Source: Octopus sinensis (lineage: Eukaryota). Taken from it: a stretch of DNA of 64,000 bases. Made by a program: the position numbers and the translations under genes. Positions 441-62,854 of the stretch are shown here, one piece after another (position 1 is the stretch's first letter; every line of letters begins with the position of its first letter). The stretch is from the NCBI RefSeq assembly GCF_006345805.1, contig NC_043006.1, positions 32,426,001 to 32,490,000 on the forward strand. The letters run 5' to 3'. The notes below the pieces were generated by a model that worked only from the letters and a program-made list of their open reading frames with translations, searched no databases and had not been told where the DNA came from.

Positions 441-570
441 AATATTATTAACAAGACAAGAAACAATTGTAGTGGCGGTTTTTTTTGACTATTTATTAAA
501 ATTTTATGTATTGATTAAGTCTTTCCTTGTTTGTTTTGCAAAATAGTGGTTTTGTCTCTAATAATATTTT
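441..570 (+). mobile_element. Penelope-like pLTR 3' fragment containing the 3' half of a hammerhead motif
   Basis: GAA-ACAATTGT-A-GTGG at 460-475. Terminal AATAGTGGTTTTGTCTCTA is shared with 3093-3111 and 62821-62839. Flanked by (TA)n on both sides. Confidence 0.6.
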
Positions 571-1221
571 ATATATATATATATATATATATATATATAT
601 ATATATATATATATAATATAATTAAAAAATTAAATCATCAAAATTAATGAATTTTATCAGTGGTCAGCATATAAAAACATTTTACGTAAAATACATTTAC
701 AGAGATATATAATTGTATAGGGTACAATCATACTTATTGTGCCCTATATATATATGTATATATACACACACACATTTATATATATGTATACATATACATG
801 TATGTATGCATATATGTATATGTATACATATATATATATATGTATGTATATATACATGTATGTATATATGTGGATATAAAACTGTGTATAAATTCACCTT
901 CTTCCCAATCTGTTATGAACTATACTTTGAAGAATATTGATTTTTATGTTTCTCTGCATCTATTTCCGTCAATGCAAATTAATTTTTCCATTCTAAGTCT
1001 GAGCGTATATATAATTAATGTAAACTTACACACATACACACACACACACACACACGCGCGCGCAATCACACACACACACCACACACACACACACACACAC
1101 ACACCATTTATGTACTTTTAAAAACTGCAGCGTTAAACCATGAAATATGTGCAAAAAACTATTGGGAGCAATTTCGAAATTTATGTCTGAAAAATTGTTT
1201 GAACTCCAGTCATATATCTGC

Positions 1222-1563
1222 ATACATACATACATACATACATACATACATACATACATACATACATACATACAACATACATACATGCATACATACATAC
1301 ATACATACATACATGCATACATACATGCATGCATGCATACATACAAGCATACACACATACATACATACATGCATGCATACATACATACATACATTCATAT
1401 ATACATACATACATACATTCATACATACATACATACATACATACATACACACACACACACATACATACATACATACATTCATACATACATACATAATACA
1501 TACATACATACATACATACATACATACATACATACATACATACATACGTACATACATACGTAC
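1222..1563. repeat. (CATA)n microsatellite
   Basis: Seen directly; source of the HTYI/MYVC pseudo-ORFs. Confidence 0.95.
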
Positions 1564-2671
1564 ATTGATGTGAAAACCCGAAAAATACTGTTTTGAGTCT
1601 GTTGGTTTGTAGTAAATCTCGGTTGCAATTTGTTTGTTGACTTTTTAAAAATCAAAATGTCCAGAAATGAGAGCCGTTCCTTGCTATACTTATTATATTA
1701 TATTTTTTCCACGTATTTTCAACTCATAATTTTGCCACGTGGCGTATACTAAATCTTCAGTTCCTTTGCACATTGTATATTTTTATATTTCTCTCCCTCT
1801 TTCTCTCTCTCTCTCTCTCTCTCTCTCTCTCTCTCTCTATATATATATATATAACATATGAATTCGTGTACGTGTGAGCGTGCACAGGTATATATATGTA
1901 TTTATGTATGTATCTGTGAATGCACGCGTGCGCATGTGCGTGTAAATTATTTTCACTCGTTGAGCGTCCGCATCAAATTTAACACTTTAAATTTAATCTA
2001 AAATGTTTTGCACTGAGACACAAAATATTAAATTTTATAGTAGAAATTAAATTAAATAGTCGGGAATAGTGTGATGTCTTGTATTTAATTAGTATAATAA
2101 TATGGGACAAATACATTTCGAGCAAGTTTTCTCTCCTGCGTGAAGTAACTGAAAGAGTAATATATATATATATAAGTATTTCGCTTACGCTTCACTGTTC
2201 TTATAACCTGGCGTAGAACTCAATATAAGTATGCTTCTCACGAAGCATTAGTCAAGTATAGAGCGGTAAAGAAATAAATAGTTGACAAACGAATACACAT
2301 TGATAAGACGAACTTCGTTAGCTTACTGCTGTTTCCAATGTAAGATGCAGGGGACTCACAGTTGGGTGCCTAAGTAACACTTTATAGCTTCGTCGGAGTC
2401 TGAAACATGAATACACTTCAAATATCGCTCAGTTATGATTCTACTGCATCTTATAGCGGAAACAGTTGTAAGCTAAGGCGGGCCATAACATAATCGTTTA
2501 TACCTTTGCCGTCTATGTTTTGTTTTATATATAAATACATACATACATGCATACATACATACATACATACATACATACATACATACATACATACATACAT
2601 ACATACACACATATACACACATATATGTATATATATATATATATATATAGAGAGAGAGAGAGAGAGAGAGA

Positions 2672-3120
2672 GGAGGAATTTCAGCCACGCTTCGTAGTGC
2701 GCTATCTCAGCAGCTCCTTTATAGGATCCAGTGGGTAAAGACATCATCAGGTGGAACTACGTCCGGTTTCGGTCCCTACTCCTCTACCGGTATCGACGTG
2801 GCATCCCACCTTTCGGAGGTGTCTTCAGCCCCGGTGTTGAGTGCATTTCTTCTTTCCCCTTTTTTCTTCTGTTCCCTGGCCTCTTCGTTGCAGCGTCAAC
2901 GAGTATCAGCGGACGACTAACCATCCTGCTAAATTTCCCTTTAGCTATATAAAAAAAAAAATCCAAAAATTTTAAATTTTAATGATTTAAATCTTAATTT
3001 TTATATTTTATTTATATATTATATATTATATTAATTATATTTATTTTTTGCTTTTTATGTTTGGTTTATGTCTATCACAGTTTGAGTTGCCTAATAGTGG
3101 TTTTATCTCTAATTTAATTT
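2672..3120. mobile_element. GC-rich insert, probable Penelope-like remnant
   Basis: Minus strand has CCAC-CTGATGA (2744-2754), the same as 62755-62765. The 3' end TTGCCTAATAGTGGTTTTATCTCTAATTT belongs to the same family. Flanked by (GA)n and (TA)n. Confidence 0.45.
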
Positions 3121-3360
3121 ATATATATATACATATATATATATATATATATATATATATATATATATATATATATATATATATATATATATATATATAT
3201 ATATGTATATATATATATATGTATGTATGTATATATGTATATATATATATATATATATATATATATATATATATATATTATATATATATATATATATATA
3301 TAGGCACACATGCACACACGCGCACACACATACTCACATATACACGTCTATATAAATATA

Positions 3361-61884: not shown

Positions 61885-62191
61885 TATTAACGTGGGAGTG
61901 GCTGAGCACTCTACAGACACGTGTACCCTTAACGTAGTTCTCGGGGAGATTCAGTGTCACACAGAGTGTGACAAGGTTGGCCCTTTGAAATACAGGTACA
62001 ACAGAAACAGGAAGAGTGAGAGAAAGTTGTGGTGAAAGAGTACAGTAGGGTTCGACCCCCCCTCCTGCCGGAGACTCGTGGAACTTTAGGTGTTTTCGCT
62101 CAATAAACACTCACAATGCCCGGTCTGGGAATCGAAACCGCGATCCTACGACCGCGAGTCCGCTGCCTTAACCACTGGGCCATTGCGCCTC
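61885..62191 (-). mobile_element. tRNA-derived SINE (family C-like)
   Basis: Minus head GGAGGCGCAATGGCCCAGTGGTTAAGGCAGCGG...GGTTTCGATTCCCAGACC; tail shared with 21885-21990. Confidence 0.8.
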
Positions 62192-62246
62192 CACACACAC
62201 ACACACACACACACACACACACACACACATATATATATATATATAC

Positions 62247-62475
62247 ATGCTTTATTTAAAAGTAGCAGAAATTCAACAAAACCGGTTACTCTGAGTTTCA
62301 CGTTCGTCGGACAGTTTTTGTTTTAACAAAAACTGTCCGACGAACGGAAACGTGAAACTCAGAGTAACAGGTTTTGTTGAATTTATGCTGCTTTTAAATA
62401 AAGCATATTACCTTACCCCTGGTATTTGAGCACTCTTTTTTCCTCCTTGTTTCACATTTATGTGTTTACTCCGGT
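62247..62475. mobile_element. Fold-back Penelope-like mini element (palindrome 62247-62406 plus unpaired tail)
   Basis: About 78-bp arms with a 2-nt spacer at 62323-62324; (TA)n on both flanks. Confidence 0.8.
62333..62370 (+). ncRNA. Minimal type I hammerhead ribozyme candidate, C4 variant
   Basis: CTGT-CCGACGA-ACG-GAAA-CGT-GAA-ACTCAGAGT-A-ACAG; predicted cleavage after GTA at 62366. Confidence 0.65.
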
Positions 62476-62495
62476 ATATATATATATATATATAT

Positions 62496-62854
62496 AATAA
62501 TAAATATTAGGGAATAAATCCAAATTCACAGGGAAAAATCAGATTTAGGATTGAATCCAATTTATAGTAAAATATTATATTATATTAAATTAGAGACAAA
62601 ACCACTATTAGGCAAATCAAATAATGAAAGACTTAAGCCAATACATATGATTAATTTATATTATTTAAATATGTAACAATTATTAAAAAATATAATTAAT
62701 ATCCACTACGATCGTTTCCTGCCTGCTGTCTTTAAATTTTTGAGTCGCAGTCATTCATCAGGTGGTTTCAAAATTTTTCTTGGCGAGTTTTAAACAATGA
62801 ACTCATTGTTTGATTTGCCTAATAGTGGTTTTGTCTCTAATTTAATATAATATA
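62496..62854. mobile_element. Penelope-like pLTR (minus) with partial inverted copy
   Basis: Inverted repeat 62577-62627 / 62803-62854; same family as 441-570 and 3085-3120. Confidence 0.7.
62703..62765 (-). ncRNA. Type I hammerhead ribozyme candidate, canonical core
   Basis: CCAC-CTGATGA-ATGACTGC...GCAGGCAG-GAA-ACGATCGT-A-GTGG; first helix II pair is mismatched. Confidence 0.65.

Follow-up and report, generated by a model that had tools for sequence, protein, structure and literature searches.

What are the short hammerhead-bearing inserts that recur along a 64,000-nt stretch of contig NC_043006.1 from the 2.72-Gb genome of Octopus sinensis (hereafter the window), and what sets their 5' ends? 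A preliminary description of the window listed ten inserts sharing a hammerhead ribozyme (HHR) grammar and proposed that they are either extreme truncations of Penelope-like elements (PLEs) or retrozyme-like RNAs mobilised in trans. Families are named here A to F after their sites in the window. A PLE origin of the inserts is very probable. We also consider it fairly likely that they are the pseudo-long terminal repeat (pLTR) ends of many PLE families, produced as run-off complementary DNA (cDNA), and that the 5' end of the family at site 6604 (family A) stems from a tRNA-derived RNA polymerase III (Pol III) promoter. As a population the inserts are of a known kind, present at high density; the novelty lies in the tRNA-like head of family A and in its unit, which is free of runs of four T (T4).

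The family A unit and its transcription

The family A unit of about 2.6 kb consists of a tRNA-like head, an (AAT)n spacer, a start codon, the HHR, two 3' ends 34 nt apart, the rest of the open reading frame (ORF), a stop codon and about 25 nt that lead to the next head. A near-complete 2.6-kb unit is found at the genome locus L357. The ORF probably starts about 35 nt above the HHR core, which places the ribozyme inside it. The order of the parts was read from three sets of 30 loci. Among loci picked by the head, the HHR tail follows on the same strand within 500 nt in 22, lies further away or on the other arm in five and is absent from three. The head stands about 25 nt past the stop codon in 29 of the 30 loci picked by the ORF end. 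In the set picked by the ORF start, which contains duplicates (L407-410 and L414/416), the HHR tail runs directly into the ORF in 24 loci and a full head lies upstream in 6/30. The (AAT)n spacer differs greatly in length between copies and is frequently broken by other repeats (e.g. L281, L283, L292, L296, L300 and L305).

The inserts of families A and B form the ends of elements encoding a reverse transcriptase (RT) and a GIY-YIG endonuclease (EN). The RT of family A aligns to that of family B at E 6e-31, and relatives of A at 56-68% identity carry RVT_1; a Pfam search gave no match for its 186-aa C-terminal piece. Two full-length relatives, P0014 and P0024, are likewise low in phenylalanine (2.1% in P0014). 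Both families combine an RT with a C-terminal GIY-YIG domain in one element, as EN-bearing (EN+) PLEs do, and the pLTR with a minimal HHR, the tandem and inverted 5' copies and the one-sided tail of 30-40 nt are also those of EN+ PLEs. By sequence, the family A frame appears to be Poseidon-type, as the Zn-finger linker is absent and the ORF starts as in the Anolis element PAc; the Penelope/Poseidon clade name is used provisionally.

In longer family A copies, a segment of about 80 nt with A and B boxes lies above the (AAT)n spacer. At a relaxed threshold, ARAGORN called 15 of 90 heads as tRNA and none of 450 shuffled sequences; an A box was found in 56/90 heads and a B box in 51/90, and the anticodon position reads ACT. 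A tRNA-derived head with A and B boxes is the mark of a SINE2 (SINE, short interspersed element), and the head may be among the octopus tRNA-derived SINEs that Ohshima and Okada reportedly described in 1994. A blastn comparison of one head with phages returned three weak tRNA matches (E 0.7-2), which were not used, and a metagenome scan returned only distant relatives of A, without tRNA calls. The window copy begins immediately 3' of the (AAT)n spacer and lacks the head, which therefore was not detectable by the preliminary description. This copy is flanked by a 10-bp target-site duplication (6449..6458 and 6734..6743, both +) and consists of an inverted arm (6461..6550, -) without the 34-nt tail and a direct arm (6551..6733, +) with the end of the 5' untranslated region (UTR), the core at 6604-6610 (G8A), GAA at 6632, ACGT and the 3' tail. 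Its likely start codon is at 6570 and cleavage would occur after 6639; core and helix I are mutated at this site, while the family itself is intact.

The 5' ends of family A copies pile up at the head. The genome contains 2,447 exact matches to a 25-letter head pattern, and of the first 30 by position four enter the ORF and 26 stop 0-8 nt above the head; without one duplicate, 25/29 copies begin at the head, against about 2.5% expected from the truncation rate in the ORF region. A second pattern directly upstream of the head has 814 matches, which, calibrated on ORF-end copies (8/30 and 11/30), gives about 9,000 heads and 24% ORF-linked copies. The presence of family A tails in 7 of 73 neighbouring and spaced stretches suggests a larger total. 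Short copies make up 76-87% of the head-bearing copies. In 230 columns nothing diagnostic separates them from the ORF-linked copies (smallest p 0.015), and their divergence is the same (6.6% versus 6.6%). A stand-alone, PLE-dependent SINE was considered for family A and rejected, since the head is part of an autonomous unit and no diagnostic columns set the short copies apart.

The case for Pol III rests on the promoter-like head and on the T runs of the unit. Human Pol III terminates at four or more T (PMC3141230). The 2,632 nt of L357 contain 25 runs of at least three T, none of which reaches four, whereas T4 makes up 52/164 such runs in nine control ORFs, of which four are Poseidon-like and come from metagenome contigs (p 2e-4 versus L357). 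In family A, runs of two T extend to three at a normal rate (0.27) and only the fourth T is missing. Dinucleotide shuffles of the unit give P 0.02 for the absence of T4, and a synonymous-codon shuffle predicts 3.3 T4 where none is observed (P 0.012). Ten A copies carry 0-2 T4 where 2.4-3.8 are expected, while two controls match expectation. Across all A copies T4 occurs in 16/422 runs, with no site shared by more than two of 19-31 copies. Near the HHR it is found in 0/30 A copies against 90/90 copies of B to D, and 17 complete head-to-tail units (4,850 nt; 14 from short or mixed sets) have none. On these sequence features, Pol III transcription of the short A copies seems rather probable. The wider proposal, that family A is an autonomous protein-coding retrotransposon which captured a tRNA-derived promoter, is transcribed by Pol III over the entire 2.6-kb unit and has been purged of T4, is put forward tentatively, as close to an even call.

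Several results weigh against these proposals. Rfam gave no tRNA match for the two heads tested, and ARAGORN at its default threshold found no tRNA in the heads. Phenylalanine makes up 3% of the family A protein and 5.5% of that of B, which lowers the T4 expectation for A, so that the T4 contrast is partly compositional and a fair p is about 0.01; the A copies in the T4 counts are moreover not independent. Three unstranded RNA sequencing (RNA-seq) runs, from one study with another species label, show a depth that tracks the DNA profile, without a read-start pile-up in these runs or enrichment of the head over DNA. Finally, a Pol III RNA has neither cap nor poly(A), and with the HHR cutting inside the ORF its translation needs an extra assumption.

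The same reads hold some further observations. Opposite-strand joints occur in reads of the runs X21-X23 aligned to L303, which indicates that fold-back junctions are transcribed in the related species; one 55-nt back-joint carries inserted letters, and a 45-nt GT..AG skip lies inside the ORF end in all three runs (L303). A>G and T>C differences also occur, which are not readable as editing without matched DNA.

Proposed run-off copies and competing explanations

Family B supplies the second direct link to a coding element: 16 of its 29 copies extend 114-1,517 nt upstream into a frame with the RT thumb, a CxxxxCxxC linker and GIY-YIG. A sister subfamily has open 782-aa frames together with tandem and inverted repeats; the frames give RVT_1 at E 9e-8 and a GIY-YIG match (E 0.002) that falls below the curated cut-off. 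Family B shows the CX2-5CxxC linker before the endonuclease and (TA)n targets in 30/30 copies, and by these described clade features its sequence identifies it as an ordinary new member of the Neptune/Nematis PLEs. In a young B subfamily (L188, - strand, 7172-5676 and 5742-3397), an upstream frame of 499 codons has an overlap of 67 nt with the 782-codon RT/EN frame, resembling a frameshift-separated ORF1, and several copies are fully open. The earlier proposal of extreme PLE truncation is thus supported for families A and B, which are contiguous with RT/GIY-YIG frames. No ORF link was found for families C, D and E, for which tblastn gave no match within 1.5 kb upstream; this counts against the PLE reading of these three families, which may have a non-autonomous origin. 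The ORFs present in L128/L192 and L103/L193 are those of neighbouring elements.

In each family the 5' ends gather at one place, which is the head for family A and a point 10-60 nt above the core for families B to E. Relative to the core, 26/29 C copies end at -8 to -24, 25/29 E copies at -20 to -52 and 13/29 B copies at -3 to -60; B, C and E copies were chosen by similarity to the window copy and so share a minimum 5' extent, which tempers the support that these counts give to the run-off reading. Family D was sampled by position (30 copies among 195 pattern matches): 27/30 end within about -60 and three have another AT-rich upstream part, four loci being one duplicated insertion and two the arms of one. 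The 3' ends are fixed, with both DNA contigs and RNA reads from a related species stopping at two places 34 nt apart. The preliminary description had asked whether copy boundaries are fixed, as in a non-autonomous family, or random, as in truncation; the 5' ends fit neither pure randomness nor a family of its own, and combine a one-site pile-up with a longer minority. Families B, C and D have one-sided tails and are followed by at least four TA units in 30/30, 28/30 and 30/30 copies, against 7/30 for family A with a 24% background. Of the 23 A copies in which an end is readable, 9 are flanked by duplications of 8-14 bp, although chance may account for some of the 8-mers. Fold-back junctions vary between copies, which indicates that each hairpin arises during insertion instead of being inherited.

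The run-off step, in which cDNA would extend from just past the HHR to the 5' end of the transcript, is likely by analogy with PAc. The PAc protein nicks AT-rich DNA and starts cDNA synthesis within the RNA, at two sites beyond the HHR, and the PAc HHR cleaves only with protein and is dispensable for insertion in vitro (PMC11167929). In the octopus families, the PLE protein would accordingly be expected to nick AT-rich DNA, with cDNA beginning at one of two RNA sites past the HHR. Synthesis from the first site of a transcript could reach only the transcription start and would leave a short, fixed, HHR-bearing piece; synthesis begun in a downstream unit would give longer, raggedly cut copies. 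If a further, inverted cDNA then started from the inner site, a fold-back with unequal arms would result, a known PLE pattern. Neptune-type families use (TA)n targets and family A other sites, with duplications of 8-14 bp. Pol III would transcribe family A, and selection against a T4 terminator would keep its entire unit free of T4. For cleavage, the HHR is predicted to depend on dimers or on assistance from protein.

The inserts could instead be ordinary PLE pieces, with a tRNA-derived SINE that landed in the UTR of family A, transcription by RNA polymerase II (Pol II) and an RT that stalls or snaps back at a hairpin. The Penelope promoter is internal, lies in the pLTR and resembles that of long interspersed elements (LINEs), with initiator and downstream promoter elements (Inr/DPE; PMC2377424). 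At the start of the family A head, a small GCCC-AC-GGGC hairpin might stop or turn the RT, and an inverted arm stands at that place in 12 of the 25 copies that start at the head; both points speak for this explanation, as do the lack of a head-specific RNA signal, the likeness of the (AAT)n after the head to a SINE tail and the 3/30 head-picked loci without an HHR tail. The inverted arm is nevertheless missing from 13/25 head-start copies, the ends lie past the 5' side of the tRNA-like fold and not its 3' side, and Pol II transcription leaves the T4-free 2.6-kb unit unexplained. On this evidence we judge the Pol II explanation unlikely, though of some weight.

Less probable still is a division of labour in which Pol III makes only a head-to-tail RNA of about 300 nt, copied in trans by the PLE protein, and Pol II transcribes the full element. 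The predominance of short copies among head-bearing ones and the 17 T4-free head-to-tail units fit such an RNA, and Pol III-transcribed HHR SINEs are known, e.g. schistosome Sm-alpha (PMC6765202). Yet the ORF is also devoid of T4, the short copies form no separate lineage, and for want of a terminator a Pol III transcript from the upstream head would continue into the ORF. Finally, the inserts could be non-autonomous hairpin or circular RNAs of retrozyme type, independent of PLEs in origin and mobilised in trans. This would account for the clustered 5' ends of C, D and E and for their missing ORF link, and non-LTR retrozymes (LTR, long terminal repeat) have been proposed as derivatives of PLE pLTRs (bioRxiv 10.64898/2026.07.22.740005). 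Against this stand the contiguity of A and B with ORFs, the copy-to-copy variation of fold-back junctions, and copies that do not start at the HHR cut site; head-to-tail HHR arrays, the mark of non-LTR retrozymes, were found neither in the window nor in the family loci read. We regard it as very improbable for the inserts in general, and the retrozyme option of the preliminary description is not supported for family A, the short copies of which equal the ORF-linked ones in sequence and form no tandem arrays.

Relation to known elements

Metazoan PLEs carry minimal HHRs (Cervera and De la Pena 2014, PMC4209133) with a short or palindromic helix III, an extra base and a U3-A8 core. They form many families per genome and occur mostly as single truncated motifs, with opposite-strand pairs 100-700 bp apart. 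The preliminary description held that the core variants may be undescribed for this lineage; the U3-A8 core and the extra base before helix II are already given in that publication, as are the short palindromic helix III and the opposite-strand pairs, and no cephalopod appears in the parts of that work covered. The CCGA core of family C and the core-adjacent mismatch of D, E and F were not found in its main text as covered, and its supplements may hold them. Several octopus families have a one-by-one mismatch at the junction of core and helix II in place of G10.1-C11.1, and several use a CCGA core (U4C); one or the other occurs at 62761, 36892 and 45793 in the window and in L201, L249, L227, L198 and L264. 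Other HHR families (L261, L264, L222 and L225) have helix II domains of 55-65 nt and an 8-nt palindromic helix III.

The Poseidon element PAc (Frangieh et al. 2024, PMC11167929) resembles family A in an HHR that overlaps the ORF start, AT-rich targets, tandem units and two RT start sites one tail-length apart. It differs in that no tRNA-like promoter is described in the parts covered; that 5' ends should gather where the transcript starts is what we deduce from the PAc result. Neptune/Nematis PLEs (Craig et al. 2021, PMC8557442) share with family B the CX2-5CxxC linker before GIY-YIG and the (TA)n targets, as well as an inverted copy upstream and a tail of 30-40 bp on one side only, and nothing essential sets B apart from them as described there. 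The TRIMp3 elements Cassandra, Helenus and Ajax (Kojima 2024, PMC10886601) have, like family A, a small-RNA-derived Pol III promoter in the terminal repeat, probably acquired by SINE insertion. They are non-coding LTR elements of 300-1,300 bp, whereas A is a protein-coding PLE with an entire unit free of T4; it does not fit the TRIMp3 definition (two true LTRs with primer binding site and polypurine tract, no ORF), as it encodes RT/EN and has PLE-type repeats. Schistosome Sm-alpha/Sj-alpha SINEs (PMC6765202) also place a hammerhead after a Pol III-type promoter, but as non-coding tandem repeats with canonical HHRs, while in family A such a piece serves as terminal repeat to an element encoding RT/EN. 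Non-LTR retrozymes (PMC7229834; bioRxiv 10.64898/2026.07.22.740005) are likewise short HHR repeats tied to PLEs; they are tandem and non-coding, with mostly canonical HHRs and circular RNAs, unlike the dispersed, inverted inserts studied here, which carry minimal HHRs and in two families are contiguous with ORFs. In cephalopods, 235 Rfam hammerheads are reported for the giant squid (PMC6962438), and the passages covered of an octopus repeat annotation do not mention ribozymes (PMC13282606). Our literature search, the scope of which excluded Repbase, supplements and most subscription papers, found no autonomous PLE with a tRNA-derived promoter.

Pol II, or RNA polymerase I read-through in R2, is taken to transcribe protein-coding retrotransposons; the elements described with Pol III promoters, SINEs and TRIMp3, are non-coding. 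If the Pol III proposal is true, family A sheds about ten thousand or more SINE-like strong-stop copies and represents a possible route for the birth of a PLE-dependent SINE, and its Pol III-driven RT/endonuclease mRNA raises questions about cap-independent translation and the role of the hammerhead. If family A does not depend on Pol III, what remains is an ordinary though dense PLE landscape. The run-off model would explain the litter of HHR mini-inserts in PLE-rich genomes, and would make PLE transcription starts mappable from genome copies alone.

Hammerhead motifs in the genome and sites in the window

Two descriptors were compared with local dinucleotide shuffles. The first, requiring at least 3 bp in helix I, found 2 motifs in the window against 0.1 in shuffles; the second (strict), which tolerates one mismatch adjoining the core, found 3 against 0.175, namely at 36403 (-), 62337 (+) and 62761 (-). 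The neighbouring 129.9 kb hold 6 strict motifs (0.4 in shuffles), and sixty evenly spaced 10-kb genome samples (599.9 kb) hold 20 (0.8 in shuffles, maximum 2). The frequency thus exceeds the shuffled expectation throughout, as had been anticipated, and because neighbours and spaced samples show a comparable excess, the window is typical of the genome and not a hot spot. The 20 motifs comprise two inverted pairs and about 14 unrelated sequence types with one grammar (list judged by eye). Extrapolation gives about 87,000 intact motifs genome-wide (Poisson range 52,000-136,000), or about 30 per Mb; 4,000-9,000 are reported for coelacanth and Xenopus with different descriptors (PMC4209133). With many of them in transcribed fold-backs, these motifs form a natural library of hammerhead variants and a possible source of double-stranded RNA (dsRNA) in an animal group in which RNA editing is known to be heavy. 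To call the inserts a major genome component was an overstatement, since they occupy 3.8% of the window; simple repeats mask 17.6%. First-look genome candidates, which are not copy numbers, amount to 2,472 for A (6604), 1,428 for B (36403), 1,966 for C (62337), 1,136 for D (62761), 386 for E (36892) and 71 for F (45789).

Two checks suggested in the preliminary description gave no support. An Rfam scan of the window shows no Hammerhead among the best 150 of 239 rows at E<=1, mostly microsatellite-type miRNA matches, and no within-family helix covariation is visible in 17 family A copies, where the pattern resembles neutral decay. Folding eight motifs as monomers gave no HHR fold, as expected because the motifs are minimal. 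The HHR structure is supported by the different sequences that share one grammar across families in the strict-descriptor scan.

Eight of the ten listed sites belong to repeat families with the HHR grammar. Sites 18461 and 34959 are unconfirmed: the former (18461..18525, -) has a CTGATGA core and a small local hairpin but no GAA, with 3 genome candidates, 2 of them partial; the latter (34957..34996, -) is a single-copy HHR-like motif (1 candidate, no second copy in the genome). The five claimed fold-backs were recovered, directly at 6604, 36403, 36892 and 62337 and through a short arm at 62761. A preference for (TA)n applies to five of the ten sites and not to the other five, and at least four TA units follow family A copies at background level only. 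Many sequence types are indeed unrelated, but 460, 3053 and 62761 have their 3' region in common.

The family B fold-back (36277..36587, in (TA)n), the end of a Neptune-type PLE, carries an intact U3-A8 HHR on its inverted arm (core 36403, -); the direct arm, with the longer tail, has its core at 36413 (+) and a 1-nt deletion. Next to it, the family E fold-back (36669..37136) has an inverted arm at 36669-36851 and a direct arm from 36852 with the core at 36892 and a decayed ACAGCTGT helix III; the family is confirmed. The family C fold-back (62247..62476, in (TA)n) comprises an inverted arm followed by a direct arm with the longer tail, core CCGACGA at 62337 and helix III ACTC-A-GAGT. Family D (62497..62845, in (TA)n) has its direct arm on the - strand, with core 62761, ACGATCGT and a tail of about 75 nt, and a short inverted arm at 62803-62845. 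The family F copy (45720..45990, +, ends approximate; core 45793, ACATATGT type) is no fold-back and lies outside (TA)n.

Decayed copies complete the set. A remnant in (TA)n at 453..568 (+) begins inside helix II, with GAA at 460 and ACAATTGT and a D-related 3' region; it lacks the core, which is present in its relatives L249, L092 and L118. A further D-related 3' remnant without a hammerhead, absent from the preliminary list, lies beside (TA)n at 3053..3116 (+). Two decayed hammerhead 3' halves of ACAATTGT and ACGGTTGT types stand in tandem at 29250..29575 (-), each with relatives elsewhere. Sites 460 and 29464 were compared with the sampled family and spaced loci only, and relatives were found for both.

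A search of the window for PLE ORFs found none apart from a weak 44-aa match at 1498-1632 (-; E 0.003) to the family B RT, possibly an old PLE scrap or chance. Inverted SINE-like repeat pairs, further possible sources of dsRNA, lie at 25967-26572, 44090-44503, 43431-44722 and 23780-25298; one such pair is 98.6% identical over 221 nt and flanks a (TA)n spacer. A 317-nt direct repeat (97.8% identity) links 47206-47522 and 51480-51796, with a further pair at 47517-47573 and 49741-49797 and a 52-nt inverted repeat nearby (49498-49747). A 397-nt tandem duplication at 43238-44065, with 98% identity, could be of recent origin or an artefact of assembly.

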